DNA of 24,006 nucleotides from a virus. Within the stretch, counting starts at the first letter, position 1, and each line of letters starts with the position of its first letter. The notes under the pieces are model-generated. The model made no database searches. It was not told where the DNA came from and saw only the letters and a list, made by a program, of their open reading frames with translations. This document shows, in pieces, positions 14,809 to 24,006 of the stretch. The position numbers and the translations under genes were made by a program. The DNA is taken from UHGV virus genome UHGV-1462358. One strand, 5' to 3'.

Positions 14809-15383
14809 TGACCCGCATTGAGCTTGGCGGCGTGCTCGGGAAATCATTCGGTAAAATTCACCACCGCCTGATTTCCCGTGTAAGCGAGGCGGGAGTGGCG
14901 CTCGCAAAGACTATTCCGGGCTTTGAGCAGTTTATGATTTCCAGCCAGCGCCGTGGGCTCACATACTCCGTATTTAAGGGTAAAAAAAACATCGGTGTGG
15001 ATGACCTCGGTTTCCCGGTTACCGGCGATGTTATCCGCATTGTCCCGGTAATCATCGGGAGTAAAAAAGCCGGTTTGATTCAAACTATCCTGGGCGCAGT
15101 ATTAGTGATTGCATCGATCTGGATGCCAGGTCTGAGTATAGCTGCCAGCAATATGATGTTTGCTGCTGGTGCGTCCATAACGCTGGGGGGGGTAGTTCAG
15201 ATGATATCCCCTCAGGCTACAGGGCTGGCCAGCAAACAGAGCTCAGATAACCGCGCCTCATACGCGTTCGGCGGAGTCACAAATACCGCCGCACAGGGTT
15301 ACCCGGTTCCGCTCCTGTACGGCCGCCGGAGAATCGGCGGGGCAATTATTTCTGCCGGAATTTATGTCGAAGATCAGCAGTAG
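14796..15383 (+). CDS. I: Tail assembly protein (lambda gpI homolog)
   Basis: 195 aa. Hydrophobic Gly/Ala-rich central segment and C-terminal PLLYGRRRIGG motif resembling lambda gpI (PVLYGEMRVG). Overlaps the K 3' end. Confidence 0.85.
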   Translation: MQEVMTRIELGGVLGKSFGKIHHRLISRVSEAGVALAKTIPGFEQFMISSQRRGLTYSVFKGKKNIGVDDLGFPVTGDVIRIVPVIIGSKKAGLIQTILGAVLVIASIWMPGLSIAASNMMFAAGASITLGGVVQMISPQATGLASKQSSDNRASYAFGGVTNTAAQGYPVPLLYGRRRIGGAIISAGIYVEDQQ

Positions 15384-15400
15384 TTAACAAACCTTTTTAC

Positions 15401-15426
15401 AAGCCACCTTCGGGTGGCTTTTTTTA
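15401..15426 (+). terminator. Intrinsic terminator/attenuator between I and J
   Basis: AAGCCACC-TTCG-GGTGGCTT perfect 8-bp stem with UUCG tetraloop (15401-15420) followed by TTTTTT (15420-15425), 11 nt before the J ATG. Confidence 0.7.
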
Positions 15427-15436
15427 TGGGCGCGAT

Positions 15437-18400
15437 ATGGCTAAAACAATTACCGGACGAAAAGGCGGGAGCTCCAGTTCCCGAACTCCCACCGAACAGC
15501 CTGATGATCTGCAATCTGTAGCGAAGGCAAAGATCCTCGTTGCGCTTGGGGAAGGGGAGTTTGCTGGACAGCTCACCGGGAAGGATATCTACCTGGACGG
15601 AACGGCGCTGGAGAACGCCGACGGCTCCCAAAACTTCAGCGGCGTTACGTGGGAATTTCGTCCGGGGACTCAGGCACAAAAATATATTCAGGGTATCCCC
15701 GGCACCGAAAATGAAATCAGCGTGGGCACCGAAGTGTCAAGCACCACCGGCTGGACACATACCTTTACCAACACGCAACTGTCAGCCGTTCGCCTGCGCC
15801 TCAAGTGGCCATCGCTTTTTAAACAGGAGGATGATGGCGATCTGGTTGGCTATTCAATTAACTACGCTATTGATCTGCAGACCGATGGCGGCACCTGGCA
15901 GACGGTACTTAATACCAGCGTAACCGGCAAGACAACTTCCGGCTACGAACGCAGCCATCGCATTGACCTACCGCAGGCAGGCAGCACATGGACGGTGCGC
16001 CTGCGTAAGCTAACGGCGGATGCCAACAGCGCGAAAATTGGTGACACGATGACGCTGCAGAGCTATACAGAGGTCATTGACGCCAAACTGCGTTATCCAA
16101 ATACCGCGCTGCTGTACATCGAATTCGACTCAAGCCAGTTTAACGGCTCTATCCCGCAAATATCCTGCGAACCGCGAGGGCGTGTAATCCGCGTTCCGGA
16201 TACGTATGACCCGGAGACCCGCACCTATAGCGGCACATGGACGGGGGCGTTTAAGTGGGCGTGGACGGATAATCCAGCCTGGATTTTTTACGATCTGGTG
16301 GTGAGCGACCGCTTTGGGCTGGGCAATCGCCTGACGGCGGCCAATATTGATAAATGGACGCTTTACCAGGTCGCGCAATATTGCGATCAGCCGGTTCCTG
16401 ATGGTAAAGGCGGTAGCGGCACTGAGCCTCGCTATACCTGCAACGTGTATGTGCAGGAGAGGAATGACGCCTATACCGTGTTACGAGATTTTGCGGCGAT
16501 ATTCCGGGGCATGACTTACTGGGGTGGCGATCAAATCGTTGCGCTGGCGGATATGCCCCGCGATGTGGATTACAGCTACACGCGTGCAAACGTGGTTAAT
16601 GGGCGCTTTACCTATTCGGGCAGCACCACGAAAACCCGCTATACCACAGCACTGGTTTCCTGGTCCGATCCGGGTAATGCCTACGCGGATGCGATGGAGC
16701 CTGTATTTGAGCAGGATCTCGTTGCTCGCTTTGGCACAAATCAGCTCGAAATGACAGCCATTGGTTGTACCAGACAGTCAGAAGCGAACCGAAAGGGGCG
16801 CTGGGGTATTCTCACCAACAACAAGGATCGCGTTGTTTCGTTCGATGTCGGGCTGGACGGAAACATACCGCAGCCTGGCTATATCATCGCTGTGGCAGAC
16901 GAGCTGCTTTCCGGAAAGGTTATGGGCGGACGCATCAGCGCCGTTAATGGTCGCGTTATCAAACTTGACCGTGTAGCTGATGCGGCAGCAGGTGATCGCC
17001 TTATCCTCAACCTTCCCTCCGGAGCGTCACAGAGCAGGACAATTCAGGCGGTTAACGGGGAATCGGTCACAGTCACCACCGCATACAGTGAGACGCCGCA
17101 GGCCGAAGCTGTCTGGGTGGTTGAGTCAAACGAACTGTACGCACAGCAGTACCGTGTTGTGAGCGTCACTGATAACGATGATGGCACTTTCACCATTACC
17201 GGTGCATGGCACGATCCGGATAAATATGCCCGAATCGATACCGGAGCCATTATTGACCAGCGGCCGGTGAGCGTGATCCCGCCGGGCAATCAGTCACCGC
17301 CAGACAACATCGTAATCAGTTCGTTTTCGGTGGTGCAGCAGAATATCAGCGTCGAAACCATGCGCGTGAGCTGGGACCAGGCGCAGAATGCTATCGCCTA
17401 TGAAGCGCAATGGCGCCGCAACGACGGGAACTGGGTTAACGTGCCGCGCAGTTCCACCACGTCATTCGACGTTCCTGGGATTTATGCCGGGCGCTATCTG
17501 GTACGTGTACGCGCCATCAATGCCGCAGAAATTTCATCCGGGTGGGGATATTCGGAAGAGAAAACGCTGACGGGTAAAGTGGGCAATCCGCCGAAACCGG
17601 TCGGCTTCATCGCTTCCGATAATGTGGTATTCGGTATCGAGCTGAGCTGGGGATTCCCGGCGAACACCGACGACACGCTGAAGACGGAAATTCAGTACAG
17701 TCTGACTGGGACGGAAGACGATGCGATGCTGCTGGCAGACGTACCCTATCCGCAGCGCAAGTATCAGCAGATGGGCCTAAAGGCTGGGCAAATTTTCTGG
17801 TACCGCGCGCAGCTGGTGGACCGCAGCGGAAACGAATCAGGGTATACAGACTTTGTGCGCGGGCAGGCCAGCATCGATGTATCCGATATCACCGATGCAA
17901 TCCTGGAGGATATGAAAGAGTCGGAAACGTTCAAAGACCTGATCGAGAACGCGGTAGACAGCAATGAAAAAATTGCTGGTATGGCTGACGACATTAAACA
18001 GGCCAACGACGAACTGGCGCAACAGGCGCAGGATATCGCCAAAAACGCCCAGGATATCGGGAAGGTTCAGACCAGCGTTACAAACCTGTCGAGCACGGTC
18101 GGAGATGTGTCTTCTTCTCTGAGCAAGCTTGAGCAGACAGTGGCGACGGCTGATACCGCGCTGGGCCAGCGCATCGATAACATCAGCGTGTCTGTGGACG
18201 GTATGACGGGAGGAGTGAAGAACTCTGCCATCGCGATTATTCAGGGCAACCTGGCGCAGGTGGCGGCGCGCAAAACGCTGTCTGCATCCGTCGCCGGTAA
18301 CAGCGCGCAGCTGGACCGCATTGATGAGGTGATCGTCAACGAGAAAGAGGCAACGGCGCGTTCGCTGCTGAGTTTGCAGACTAACGTGAACGGCAACAAG

Positions 18401-20305: not shown

Positions 20306-20325
20306 CTCATGACTTTCAATGCAAA

Positions 20326-20347
20326 CCTCGCCTCGGCGGGGTTTTTT
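20326..20347 (+). terminator. Intrinsic terminator after the lipoprotein gene
   Basis: GC-rich hairpin (CCTCGCC/GGCGGGG arms) followed by TTTTTT at 20342-20347, 21 nt after the stop at 20305. Confidence 0.6.
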
Positions 20348-20363
20348 ATTGCCTGGAGAAAAT

Positions 20364-21473
20364 ATGCTTTATAACACAGGAACTATCTCTATTAACGGAA
20401 ATACCGCAACCGGATCCGGTACAAACTGGACTGCACCGGCCAGCCAGGTTCGCGCTGGCCAGACGATTATTGTCATGTCTAACCCGGTTCAGATGTTCCA
20501 GATTTCATCCGTGAATAGCGCCACGTCAATGACGGTAACGCCTGCTGCATCACCGGCGCTGAGCGGCCAGAAGTACGGCATTCTGGTATCAGACAATATC
20601 TCGGTTGATGGGCTGGCGCTGGCCATGTCGCAGCTTATCAAGGAGTATGACGAGAATATTGGTGCGTGGGAGACGTTCGCCACAACCTCAGCCAACCAGA
20701 ACATTACCGTTACGATCAATGGCACCAGTTTATCAATCCCGGCTCTTGGGAAATTACTGCAGAAGGGGAGCAACGGAGCTTTGCCGGTTAATCAAGGTGG
20801 TACCGGCGCAACGAATGCCGCAGACGCTCGCACAAACCTTGGTTTAGGAAGTAGTGCGACAAAGGATGTCGGAACTGCGGCAGGGAATGTTATGCAGGTG
20901 GGAGCTTTTGGGGTTGGTGCTGCTCTCCAAAATAAGCCCACAGATGCCAGTTCATCCTTCATCAGTGATGCTGCTGGCAATACTCTGTGGGCTCCTGCGA
21001 ATGGCTGTGGGTTTCAGAGTTCCTACACCGAGCAGCGAATTGCGCAGCTGTGGATTACTTACGGTGGTGCGATATTCAGCCGTTTTCTAACAACCACTGA
21101 TGACCCTCAAACACCAAAATCATCAGTGCCGTGGGCGCAGCTGCAGTCTGCAGGTACATCGGACATAAATTTCAAGAAGGTTACTGGAGAACTTAATTTA
21201 GAAGTGTCTCTGGCCAACATCGTGGCAATGGATTTTAAGACCTTCTACTACCTTGCTGATGAAGAGAAAACGATACGCCGAGGTGTTGTTGCTCAGGAAC
21301 TGGAAAAGATAGATCCGCAATATGTTCACTCGGCTGAGGAGTCGGGGAAAATGACCCTAGACCTCAATCCTCTGGTGCTCGATGCGCTGGCGGCAATCAA
21401 AGAGCTGGCAATCCGCGTCAGCGCATTAGAGGGCGACGCTAAATCTCCGGCTTCTGGCTCATCCGCTGGTTAA
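20364..21473 (+). CDS. Side tail fibre protein: constant N-terminal part (to ~20840) fused to the variable part currently in the expressed orientation; C-terminal intramolecular chaperone-like (peptidase S74-type) domain
   Basis: ATG at 20364 with GGAGA RBS; the track's 20319 start runs through the terminator hairpin. GGTGATNAADARTNLGLGSSAT hinge motif is typical of phage tail fibres. C-terminal ...FKTFYYLADEE..GVVAQELEKIDPQYV...LVLDALAAIKELAIRVSALE fits the self-cleaving chaperone domain pattern. Confidence 0.75.
   Translation: MLYNTGTISINGNTATGSGTNWTAPASQVRAGQTIIVMSNPVQMFQISSVNSATSMTVTPAASPALSGQKYGILVSDNISVDGLALAMSQLIKEYDENIGAWETFATTSANQNITVTINGTSLSIPALGKLLQKGSNGALPVNQGGTGATNAADARTNLGLGSSATKDVGTAAGNVMQVGAFGVGAALQNKPTDASSSFISDAAGNTLWAPANGCGFQSSYTEQRIAQLWITYGGAIFSRFLTTTDDPQTPKSSVPWAQLQSAGTSDINFKKVTGELNLEVSLANIVAMDFKTFYYLADEEKTIRRGVVAQELEKIDPQYVHSAEESGKMTLDLNPLVLDALAAIKELAIRVSALEGDAKSPASGSSAG
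20827..20852. repeat. Left recombination site (gix/hix-like 26-bp site) of the invertible segment
   Basis: CTCGCACAAACC-TT-GGTTTAGGAAGT: dyad-symmetric AAACC-NN-GGTTT centre, as in hix/gix sites as recalled. Inner half matches the inner half of the right site at 10 of 12 positions. Confidence 0.6.
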
Positions 21474-22228
21474 ACAGTGAATCTGCGGGCATATCCAAGC
21501 GAACATCGATCCAGCTGTTCGCCGGTACGTCCATCGGTTCACCTTTGGTTTTGATGATTTCACCTTCATCGCTCAGGATGTATTTGCGTTTATACAGACG
21601 GATAGTCAGCCCACCGCTATCGGTTTGCTCTGCCTCAACTACACCCAGTTCCCCCATGCCGCCAGGGTCCATTGGGGGAAGTAACTGCCATCCCTCAGAC
21701 GCCAGGCCTGCCGAACCTGTGAGAACATAAACGCCGACATCAAGCCGTGAAATAGTAATGCCCTCAGCCTCGGCATTCGCCGCACCGCAGCCGCACCAGG
21801 TAAAACCATCCTCCGCTATATCAGCACGCTGGCACTCATCCTTGCTCGTTACAATTCGTGCCACGGGGGAGGCAGCTTTGATAGTGCCGTCACTGGCTTT
21901 TGTCGTATTAGCTGTATGGTAAAATTCATACCATTTACCTGCTGTTCCGCCTATAACCTGGCTAAACATTTTTCTCCCGACAGGCCCACTTAGCCAGCAC
22001 TCAAAGGTGCCGTAATTTGGGCTTCGGTTCATCCAGACACCGTAGCCCGCATCATTAGTTGGCAGGCCGTTGCCGGAACCAGAGGCAATGTTATAAAAGC
22101 CATTTAATCTCGCGTTTTCGTAACGGTTTTGTTCGGCAGGGGCAACAACACCCAAGCCCAAATCCCCTACAGAAAGTATATCGCCAGATGAGCTGTACGC
22201 GTTCCTTGTAGCGCTGCTTCCCAAACCA
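20840..22228. mobile_element. About 1.4 kb invertible DNA segment (Mu G / P1 C / e14 P-type) carrying two convergent alternative tail-fibre C-terminal coding regions
   Basis: Bounded by inverted gix-like sites with identical TT core dinucleotides in inverted orientation. Both cores fall at codon positions 2-3 in the respective reading frames. A Gin/Pin-family invertase gene lies immediately adjacent. Confidence 0.6.
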
Positions 22229-22229
22229 A
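21439..22229 (-). CDS. Alternative tail-fibre C-terminal segment (currently in non-expressed orientation; no start codon of its own within the segment)
   Basis: Minus-strand ORF encoding ...NVGLGSSATRNAYSS..., sharing the (N)xGLGSSAT junction motif with the + strand fibre. It overlaps the + fibre 3' end convergently by 35 bp. The track's GTG start at 22272 lies outside the segment and is probably fortuitous. Confidence 0.6.
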
Positions 22230-22241
22230 CGTTTAATAGAT
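22216..22241. repeat. Right recombination site (gix/hix-like) of the invertible segment
   Basis: GCTTCCCAAACC-AA-CGTTTAATAGAT on the + strand. Its reverse complement ATCTATTAAACG-TT-GGTTTGGGAAGC aligns with the left site. Confidence 0.55.
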
Positions 22242-22305
22242 TGCCACGGGCCGGCCTGGCCGATAACTTCACCTGATTTTTTTGCAGAATTTATTGGGTG
22301 AAAAA

Positions 22306-22861
22306 TATGCAAATTGGCTATGTCAGAGTGTCAACAAATGACCAAAATACAGATCTCCAGCGCCAATCTCTCGAACGCGCAGGATGTGAACAGGTTTTTG
22401 AAGAAAAAATGAGCGGGACGGTAGCGAACCGGCCAGCGCTCAAAAAGCTTCTGCGGACTCTGAATGCGGGCGATACACTGGTGGTGTGGAAACTAGATCG
22501 CCTCGGGCGAAGCATGCGAAATTTAGTGCTGCTGGTGGACGAACTCCGACAGCGGGGCATTCACTTTAAGAGCCTCACGGACAGCATTGATACATCAAGT
22601 CCAATGGGGCGTTTTATATTTCACATCATGTCAGCGCTGGCGGAAATGGAAAGAGAGTTAATCGTCGAACGCACCCGGGCTGGATTAGCGGCGGCGCGGG
22701 AAAAAGGGCGAATAGGTGGCAGACGTCCAAAATTAACTCCCGAGCAATGGGCACAGGCTGGGAGATTAATATTAAACGGCGTGGATAGAAAACAAGTGGC
22801 AATAATTTATGATGTCGCTGTATGCACGCTTTATAAAAAATTTCCGGTGGGACAGGCTTAA
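22306..22861 (+). CDS. Serine recombinase, DNA invertase (Gin/Hin/Pin/Cin family)
   Basis: MQIGYVRVSTNDQNTDLQR... with catalytic Ser in the VRVSTNDQ motif. TLVVWKLDRLGRS, SLTDSIDTSSPMGRF and the C-terminal HTH (KQVAIIYDVAVCTLYKKFP) are near-identical to Gin/Hin as recalled. ATG at 22306 preferred over the track's GTG at 22298. Confidence 0.9.
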
Positions 22862-22903
22862 ATGATTGAAGGGCAGCTGCTAGATGGGCTGCCCGTCAAA
22901 GTA

Positions 22904-23167
22904 TTATCCATTCTGCCGTACAGTTGGAAATTCAGACGTCAGCCACATGTCAGATTCATCAAACATTTCCTCCAGCATACGGTTCAGCTTTTCCCGATCA
23001 CTTTTGCTGGCATCACTATTTAAGCCGTTCGCCTGCATCGGCTTTACCTTCACTTCGGCATCAGGAAAAATCTGGTGCACCCGCTTCGTTAGTTCAGCCA
23101 GGATGATCTCTCTGGCCCCTTGGAGCCCCTCAACATTTCGCTTGTCATAAACCAGTTCAACAAACAT
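22904..23167 (-). CDS. DinI-family protein (SOS-inducible, RecA-modulating)
   Basis: Internal ATG at 23167 with GAGAGGA RBS gives an 88-aa product. The C-terminal LEEMFDESDMWL resembles the DinI C-terminus (...WESADDWF). A LexA box lies 57 nt upstream. The track's 160-aa version starts beyond the promoter and is rejected. Confidence 0.7.
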   Translation of the reverse strand: MFVELVYDKRNVEGLQGAREIILAELTKRVHQIFPDAEVKVKPMQANGLNSDASKSDREKLNRMLEEMFDESDMWLTSEFPTVRQNG

Positions 23168-23223
23168 ACGGATCCTCTCATAAGTGAAAATTGCCTGTGC
23201 TTGATCTGTTTTCATAAAAATAC

Positions 23224-23243
23224 TACTGTATATACATACAGTC
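23224..23243. promoter_or_regulatory. LexA operator (SOS box) in the divergent promoter region
   Basis: TACTGTATATACATACAGTC matches the CTGT-N8-ACAG consensus (TACTGTATATATATACAGTA) at 18 of 20 positions. A candidate -35 TTGACT overlaps it on the minus strand. Confidence 0.8.
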
Positions 23244-23266
23244 AATAAGCAAGTGAGGGTGCGTTC

Positions 23267-23506
23267 ATGCCTCGTCAACCGGATATTCGTGCTGCTTTTA
23301 TTGCGGCCATACAGCAAAACCCGAAGGGCTATCTCTGCCTGCATACAGACAGATTCATCGCTGAACTGCAGGAGAGGCACTGGCATTTCAGCCAGGCAGA
23401 TGCAAATTCATGGATCGAACGATACCAGCCAGACTTCGCCGATAAGACGACAAACGGAAGTGAGAACCGATACTGGATCCTGCGTAACATGGGGAGGGTT
23501 TTCTAA
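23267..23506 (+). CDS. Hypothetical protein (79 aa), first gene of LexA-box-proximal operon
   Basis: ATG at 23267 with GAGGG 7 nt upstream. Stop overlaps the next start (TAATG). No family recognised. Confidence 0.5.
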   Translation: MPRQPDIRAAFIAAIQQNPKGYLCLHTDRFIAELQERHWHFSQADANSWIERYQPDFADKTTNGSENRYWILRNMGRVF

Positions 23507-23826
23507 TGGGGTTTCCATCGCCAGCCATGGATTACCAGGAGCAGCGCATGACAATAGATGTTATCTGCGGTGTAGATAACAACTGCCGGGTTATTGAAAC
23601 TTCATGCGGCTGGGCCGTTATAAACGTCAGTCTTAAGCCAGAAGGAGGGGATACGTTGCTGGTTAGCATGGACGGGAGAAACCAGTTCGTGAAGCTAATG
23701 GGCCACGCGCTGATCACTCAAGATGGTGAAGCGATAGAAGGGGAAGCTTTGAATGACGTAACGGTACACGGCGTTCTTACACATACACTTAACCAAGTTA
23801 AAGACGATAAATCGCCTGTAATGTAG
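23506..23826 (+). CDS. Hypothetical protein (106 aa), second gene of the operon
   Basis: Translationally coupled to the upstream ORF. Followed by a terminator at 23892-23920. No family recognised; alternative internal starts are possible. Confidence 0.45.
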   Translation: MGFPSPAMDYQEQRMTIDVICGVDNNCRVIETSCGWAVINVSLKPEGGDTLLVSMDGRNQFVKLMGHALITQDGEAIEGEALNDVTVHGVLTHTLNQVKDDKSPVM

Positions 23827-23891
23827 CGTGTAAATGTCGGGAGTTATTCCCCCATTTTTCCCCAATGATTCCCCGTACAAATTTCAAACAT

Positions 23892-23920
23892 AAAAAAACC
23901 AGCCGTAAGAGGCTGGTTTT
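23892..23920. terminator. Bidirectional intrinsic terminator between the two-gene operon and the tRNA
   Basis: CCAGCC-GTAAGA-GGCTGG hairpin (23899-23916) flanked by A7 on the 5' side and T4 on the 3' side. It reads as a terminator on both strands. Confidence 0.7.
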
Positions 23921-23931
23921 CAATGTGTTTT

Positions 23932-24006
23932 TGGTCGGCACGAGAGGATTTGAACCTCCGACCCCCGACACCCCATGACGGTGCGCTACCAGGCTGCGCT
24001 ACGTGC
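23932..24006 (-). tRNA. tRNA-Pro (anticodon GGG), 5'-truncated by the window edge
   Basis: Reverse complement reads GCACGTAGCGCAGCCTGGTAGCGCACCGTCATGGGGTGTCGGGGGTCGGAGGTTCAAATCCTCTCGTGCCGACCA. It has D-arm, anticodon loop AUGGGGU (GGG), T-arm GGTTCAAATCC and 3' CCA, and matches E. coli proL as recalled apart from 2 missing 5' nt. Confidence 0.85.

Follow-up and report, generated by a model that had tools for sequence, protein, structure and literature searches.

Positions 23827-24006 of the window, as we call the whole 24,006-nt stretch of DNA that was analysed, very probably constitute the attR site (P arm, core and B', in that order) of a lambdoid prophage integrated site-specifically in the E. 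coli tRNA gene proL. Insertion of this type is ordinary Campbell integration, standard for temperate phages that target tRNA genes, and proL is already a published prophage site, listed among those of STEC O121:H19 (PMC8767318). What is mildly new here is the evidence from a secondary attachment site for a minimal palindromic core, together with a possible tI/sib-like terminator in the P arm. The features of the junction are the following:

23506-23826, plus strand: last phage ORF before the attachment site, 106 aa, 'UmuD-like', phrog_3469 (ORF list; PHROG match, E = 1e-47)
23827-23927: P arm (phage DNA), with candidate arm-type sites and a phage-borne terminator
23895-23920, minus strand: predicted phage-borne intrinsic terminator with stem CCAGCC/GGCTGG (consensus scan, folding)
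23928-23977: common core, 50 bp, identical in attP, attB, attL and attR (four-way alignments A1, A2, A3 and A6)
23932-24008, minus strand: tRNA-Pro, anticodon GGG, proL, running 2 nt past the window end at 24006 (ARAGORN; Rfam)

The window covers the late half of a lambdoid prophage with a head-tail module of the lambda/N15 type: terminase, portal, capsid, tail, tape measure and J genes are followed by a tail-fibre segment with a Pin-type invertase, then by DinI and two small ORFs. In the head-tail module, identity to phages mEp237, HK225 and Phi06_2987 S is 94-95%, and the best whole-window match among complete E. coli genomes is mosaic, at 93-95% identity. The last 1.2 kb (22800-24006) is 99.8% identical to E. 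coli SZQ1. Upstream of the ORF at 23506-23826 lie DinI, the Pin-type invertase and the tail-fibre genes, and in phage Flotzy the 106-aa 'UmuD-like' gene directly adjoins attP. Since the window holds one junction, the left end of the prophage was studied in relatives that share its right-end module, and the left end of the window's own prophage probably resembles that of these closest relatives.

The tail-fibre region itself is variable. When window positions 20319-22861 were compared with four related genomes (L005, L006, L007 and L008, at 14900-17900), the J protein was identical and the tail-fibre C-terminal and assembly genes, which adjoin a Pin/Hin-type invertase, varied in content and orientation. 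In the window two features belong to this segment:

21439-22272, opposite strand: tail-fibre fragment, 277 aa
22298-22861: Pin/Hin-type invertase, 187 aa

The tail-fibre segment beside the invertase looks like an invertible host-range segment; a search for inverted (crossover) repeats flanking it in the window returned none at the thresholds chosen.

At the right edge of the window ARAGORN and Rfam agree on the minus-strand tRNA-Pro(GGG) that had been called in the initial annotation, with its CCA end (23932-23934) pointing into the prophage. The Rfam match (44.9 bits, E = 3.9e-8) is 5'-truncated, 2 nt of the acceptor stem lying beyond the window. The gene can be named because in SZQ1, and in the contigs found by exact-protein look-up to encode an identical J protein, yejM, yejL, yejK and rplY come after the tRNA; in E. 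coli proL lies between yejM and yejO. Within the window, the gene does not differ from MG1655 proL at any shared base.

We then asked where phage DNA gives way to host DNA. In SZQ1, an exact 50-bp direct repeat (L001 530-579 and L001 47335-47384) flanks a 47-kb prophage located between yejO and proL, with the integrase at the yejO end. In the repeat, 4 T from beyond the tRNA adjoin its 46-nt 3' half, which runs from the CCA end through the last base of the anticodon-stem 5' strand, next to the anticodon loop. This is the repeated tRNA 3' segment that had been proposed as a check on the annotation, and its presence at both ends of the SZQ1 prophage bears out the suggestion that the att core overlaps the tRNA 3' end; ten further genomes have both junction types. 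The displaced copy in SZQ1 adjoins yejO, the native proL terminator and a lambda-type integrase gene, and the left junction is E. coli-like from yejO across the native terminator and the 50-bp block before phage DNA begins. The uninfected locus, the other check proposed, is available in MG1655, where proL is uninterrupted: it agrees with the left junction of SZQ1 toward yejO and with the window toward the tRNA 5' end. When the window, the SZQ1 junctions and MG1655 were aligned, the switch between phage and host fell exactly at the edges of the 50-bp block, the window being phage-like up to 23927 and identical to the proL 5' half from 23978.

The fourth configuration, attP, came from phage records. 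A composite of window positions 23506-23977 and SZQ1 positions 580-1300 is contiguous and 100% identical in the GenBank record of Escherichia phage Phi06_2987 S. The P arm (23827-23927), which differs from the E. coli proL 3' flank, is 100% identical in Phi06_2987 S and about 96% identical in phages Flotzy and Eeyore. In the latter two the same attP lies immediately next to the integrase gene, in the order DinI, 79-aa ORF, 106-aa ORF, P arm, terminator, tRNA 3' half, P' arm, integrase, and three IMG/VR contigs (L028, L030 and L031) also carry attP in contiguous form. In Flotzy, Phi06_2987 S and the IMG/VR contigs, attP has the 46-nt tRNA 3' half only, which continues into TCACTGCG... with no tRNA 5' half. 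Thus all four att configurations of the Campbell model were observed across the window and its relatives. The initial annotation held that the junction could not be pinpointed; it can be, because attP is contiguous in the records of Phi06_2987 S, Flotzy and Eeyore and in the IMG/VR contigs. The SZQ1 repeat, the contiguous attP and the MG1655 empty site place phage DNA left of 23928, host DNA right of 23977 and the shared core between (23928-23977), so that within proL bases 23932-23977 are supplied by the phage and 23978-24006 by the host. The relatives also show what the Islander database looks for in a tRNA-borne element: an intact tRNA at one end, a co-oriented cognate 3' fragment at the other, an integrase between tRNA and fragment, an empty site, and a contiguous attP in the free element.

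Two other readings were weighed. According to one, proL is a mere neighbouring host gene and the prophage ends by the terminator (about 23827-23894), which would make the terminator and the spacer host DNA. The window terminator does resemble the native proL terminator in its position and in its A-run/T-run architecture. However, its stem (CCAGCC/GGCTGG) and spacer (CAATGTG) differ from those at uninfected E. coli loci, phage and viral records show it joined without a break to the P' arm, and the native version, with stem CCAACC/GGTTGG, is found in place in MG1655 and displaced to the opposite prophage end in SZQ1. We regard this reading as highly improbable, and with it fall both the annotated end of the accessory region at the terminator and the option that the tRNA is simply the next host gene: the terminator and spacer are phage DNA, a diverged copy of the proL 3' flank, and phage-derived sequence reaches 23977. 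Even less credible is that the window shows a complete phage-encoded tRNA-Pro gene instead of a hybrid. Many phages encode tRNAs, and the one here is complete as far as the window extends; yet the attP sites described above have only the 3' half, which is not what a phage-encoded tRNA would look like, and the 5' half is flanked by yejM in all relatives.

The terminator had been annotated as bidirectional and 12 nt from the tRNA. A consensus scan did call the hairpin at 23895-23920 on both strands, with 10-11 pairs and a loop of 6, so this part stands; the distance from the stem to the tRNA 3' end is in fact 10-11 nt, and the plus-strand tail has only 4 U. Folded in the tRNA sense, the hairpin reaches -19.6 kcal/mol (z = -6.4) with a 7-U tail, and on the plus strand -20.6 kcal/mol (z = -5.7) with the 4-U tail. 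Because of this difference in the U tails, the hairpin is predicted to terminate tRNA transcripts much better than those of the phage genes, behind whose last ORF it forms the weaker plus-strand version. In the tRNA sense it has the GC-rich stem and the U-run just downstream of a transcription unit that are expected of an intrinsic terminator.

The native proL terminators of Enterobacter-type hosts carry the same CCAGCC/GGCTGG stem as the phage (displaced flanks in L024, L029, L032 and, from Enterobacter wuhouensis, L033), and the phage copy of the proL 3' flank may descend from the locus of another, Enterobacter-type host. We had considered the change from CCAACC to CCAGCC to be a compensatory adaptation of the phage terminator, and dropped this as the sole reading since Enterobacter-type native terminators already have the CCAGCC/GGCTGG stem. 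The same four loci, all from non-E. coli hosts, have an attL junction of the same kind (alignment A6, columns 100-160).

We next looked at the integrase. Two representatives were used, one for the family to which the window belongs and one for a second proL-targeting family:

L001 2145-3326: integrase of SZQ1, 393 aa
L012 4178-5356: integrase of CFS3313

The 393-aa integrase has a lambda Arm-DNA-binding domain (PF09003, 28.1 bits, cut-off 22) and a catalytic domain (PF00589, 28.4 bits, cut-off 27.1), and aligns over its full length with the lambda Int structures (1z1b, E = 3.8e-14), including the HxxR/HEIRAL motif. A C-terminal Tyr lies in the sequence ...AKSTKIYTQNH and would be the nucleophile. 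The protein thus combines the arm-binding domain, the catalytic domain and the RHR-Y residues of a lambda-type heterobivalent tyrosine integrase. In the CFS3313 family the arms are about 85% and the integrase 76% identical to those of the window family.

The P arm contains three tandem direct repeats in 11-bp phase:

23844-23853, plus strand: TTATTCCCCC
23855-23864, plus strand: TTTTTCCCCA
23866-23875, plus strand: TGATTCCCCG

These TTCCCC repeats are candidate arm-type sites for the N-terminal domain of the integrase. The pattern TKWTTCCCC has only three matches in the 24-kb window, all of them the P-arm repeats; because it was derived from these very sites, post hoc, comparing its count with shuffled sequences is no independent test. 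A fourth copy lies in the P' arm (L001 701-710) at a mirror distance of about 125 bp from the loop, and the positions of the repeats are kept in the ~85% identical attP sites of the CFS3313 family and in Salmonella Gifsy-2. A strict consensus search for an IHF site gave no match, and a relaxed search gave one, CATCAATGGGTTA, in the P' arm. An exact 9-mer common to the P and P' arms, TGTCGGGAG, which resembles the anticodon stem, was dismissed, as such a match between arms this long is about as likely as not to arise by chance.

Between the core and the arm-type repeat, all P' arms share a strictly conserved block, TGCAAACAGTGCATTTTTTGCAAAA (L001 640-665; A6 columns 270-300). Within the block is the inverted repeat TGCAAA...TTTGCA, and an accessory factor (such as Xis, Fis or IHF) may bind there. 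Farther along in SZQ1, between the attachment site and the integrase (L001 877-1766), lie genes for an HTH protein of the XRE type and an ImmA/IrrE metallopeptidase. The pair is also present in Phi06_2987 S (L004) and absent from Flotzy (L003), and CFS3313 has other cargo at this position.

The initial annotation had placed the tRNA at the tail-fibre end of the prophage, distal to int, and this arrangement holds: the integrase is at the opposite end from the tRNA in every related lysogen examined. On the tRNA-sense strand, attP reads int, P' arm, tRNA 3' fragment, terminator, and accessory and tail-fibre genes. With the lambda module order and a co-oriented fragment, the intact tRNA falls at the tail-fibre end and the displaced fragment beside int, so the int-distal tRNA is no anomaly and is a plain consequence of module order. 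Lambda shares this order, its int being transcribed toward attP with the tail-fibre and accessory region across it, and lambda Int is homologous to the integrase of the window family over the full length, arm-binding domain included. As in lambda, both arms have repeated candidate arm sites, the P' arm has an IHF-like site, and the hairpin occupies the position equivalent to tI/sib, beyond attP and downstream of int. The two systems differ in their target, a tRNA gene here and the gal-bio intergenic attB in lambda, and in the identity block, 50 bp against 15 bp; the distribution of the candidate arm sites also looks inverted here (three in P, one seen in P').

An int-distal tRNA has a precedent in K-12. 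CP4-6 starts inside thrW, at position 28, and its intF lies 34 kb off at the far end. The tRNA is a different one; intF is transcribed away from the end near which it lies, with its 5' end facing att, whereas here it is the 3' end of int; and CP4-6, a decayed remnant, has no head-tail module. Conversely, islands of the P4/CP4-57 type (the gtrIC element of Shigella flexneri 1c, and islands in S. boydii and EAEC 042) use the same tRNA-Pro target at yejM/yejO (PMC4924310). Their 414-aa integrase belongs to another subfamily and is encoded 210 bp downstream of the intact tRNA (PMC4924310); in the window family that position, where a P4-type element would have its integrase directly downstream of the intact tRNA, is taken by the terminator, the P arm and the accessory and tail-fibre genes. 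Note that tRNA-proximal integrases dominate surveys restricted to integrases next to tRNA genes (PMC2951348).

Where in the 50-bp block the strands are exchanged was approached from the end of the identity and from a lysogen at a secondary site. The proposed recombination site is composed as follows:

23965-23981: proposed core recombination site (end of the identity block and ECONIH5 junctions)
23965-23969: CCGAC, left part of the proposed site
23970-23976: ACCCCAT, the anticodon loop, putative 7-bp overlap
23977-23981: GACGG, host-type right half-site, where attP has GTCAC

The identity block stops exactly at the anticodon stem, giving the extent, from loop to tRNA 3' end, of the class A (anticodon-loop) sublocation of Williams and Islander, and attP retains GAC-ACCCCAT-GTC, a 3-bp inverted repeat flanking the 7-nt loop.

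In E. coli ECONIH5 (NZ_CP026202.1; L011 4060-4240 and L014 41090-41300) a prophage lies between ppx and pdeF, an insertion present in 1 of 5426 complete E. coli genomes. Its integrase-side arm is 99.4% identical to the arms found at proL in other strains. The empty site in MG1655 (L013 2655-2700) is a shared terminator hairpin, GCGGGCCGAC GAGAAAT GTCGGCCCGC, with the core CCGAC-GAGAAAT-GTCGG, and the prophage is inserted in the loop of this hairpin. The ECONIH5 attL reads ...GGGCCGAC GAGAAAT GTCACTGCG... (junction CCGAC-GAGAAAT-GTCACTG) and the attR ...CCCCCGAC ACCCCAT GTCGGCCCGC... (junction CCGAC-ACCCCAT-GTCGGCC), so that in this single genome the switch between phage and host is confined to the 5-base stretch ATGTC, where the 7-nt spacer ends. 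Flanking the spacer, the partners have CCGAC and GTC in common, one to each side. At ppx/pdeF the prophage appears to have used a secondary attachment site resembling the anticodon stem-loop.

These junctions suggest strand exchange at the edge of the anticodon loop (23970-23977). They also bear on the alternative that the exchange takes place in the T-loop or at the tRNA 3' end and that the longer identity block is only passive homology. Such sublocations are often used by integrases of different subfamilies (1836 islands in Islander class J; PMC4383910), and the primary-site junctions alone cannot place the exchange inside a 50-bp block that is identical throughout. On the other side, the identity ends right at the anticodon stem, where the GAC...GTC inverted repeat of attP flanks the loop, and exchange in the T-loop would require the same 35 bp at the secondary site, which the MG1655 site lacks. 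Because the ECONIH5 attR has the whole phage core up to ACCCCAT and the attL has none of it, the junctions exclude T-loop or 3'-end exchange at this site, and we consider the alternative very unlikely in general. The evidence fits the anticodon-centred class of tRNA sites, to which the attP of 2083 of the 3919 tRNA islands in the Islander database belongs (PMC4383910). As at class A sites (PMC4383910), the tRNA is regenerated, the displaced 3' fragment is in direct orientation and the anticodon stem provides symmetric flanks around a 7-nt loop; nothing essential differs, the position of the integrase by the displaced fragment being the less familiar orientation.

Taken with exchange at the anticodon loop, the data are best explained by the following course of integration. 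The attP consists of the 46-nt tRNA 3' half, 4 T and a diverged proL 3' flank with its own terminator. Encoded across attP, with transcription running toward attP and parallel to the tRNA fragment, the lambda-type heterobivalent tyrosine integrase would exchange strands at the anticodon stem-loop, CCGAC - 7-bp loop - GAC/GTC. The host 5' half (23978 onward) would be joined to the phage 3' half and proL regenerated unchanged, now terminated by the phage hairpin at 23895-23920. The host 3' half and the native terminator would be moved about 45-49 kb away, beside yejO and the integrase end, and the left end of the window's prophage, beside yejO, is expected to read ...CCAACCGTAA(G/A)GGTTGG...TTTTTGGTCGGCACGAGAGGATTTGAACCTCCGACCCCCGACACCCCATG, then TCACTGCG....

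The P-arm terminator could have an additional function. Before integration it is downstream of int, some 200 nt away on the far side of attP, and by analogy with lambda tI/sib it could act as a retroregulator of int; if so, integration would separate it from int. The combined proposal, in which Int reads little beyond a short palindrome around a 7-bp spacer, CCGAC-N7-GTC, and adopts terminator hairpins as secondary sites, as in the one ppx/pdeF lysogen, and the P-arm terminator has a second role, is speculative and in our view rather unlikely as a whole.

The comparison fixes the prophage boundary within a few bases and assigns the terminator to the phage. The attB/attP pair of this proL-targeting family of lambda-type integrases could serve to delimit prophages or as an integration tool, and the proL site is conserved across Enterobacteriaceae. 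An attL-type junction is present in 116 of 5426 complete E. coli genomes (11 of the window subtype and about 105 of a related subtype), so about 2% of them bear such a junction. The window-type attR at proL was found in 12 genomes, 11 of which have both junctions, 45-49 kb apart.

In EC2641 (L036 7200-7700, NZ_JALDNN010000001.1), a prophage at proL is without its left half and without the displaced tRNA fragment. There napB has been joined to part of a phage DNA methyltransferase gene, and napC, ccm, narP, yejO, attL and int are gone, leaving a locked-in remnant. The prophage of the window could be truncated in the same way.

Parts of the attP module were also seen in prophages that integrate elsewhere. 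Prophages at ssrA with another integrase, in E. coli strains 1500 and FEX669 (L016 2570-2730 and L015; whole prophage in L017), keep the P-arm repeats, the phage terminator, the tRNA-Pro 3' half and GTCACT, followed by unrelated DNA; judged from this arrangement, the copy is a relic half-attP left by module exchange. A degenerate version of the attP module also lies downstream of sseI in Salmonella Gifsy-2 (NC_010393.1, about 44170-44410; L018 1960-2200), a phage that integrates at a site other than proL: the TTCCCC-type repeats number three, the terminator reads CAGCC/GGCTG, and the tRNA-Pro 3' part has lost about 7 nt.
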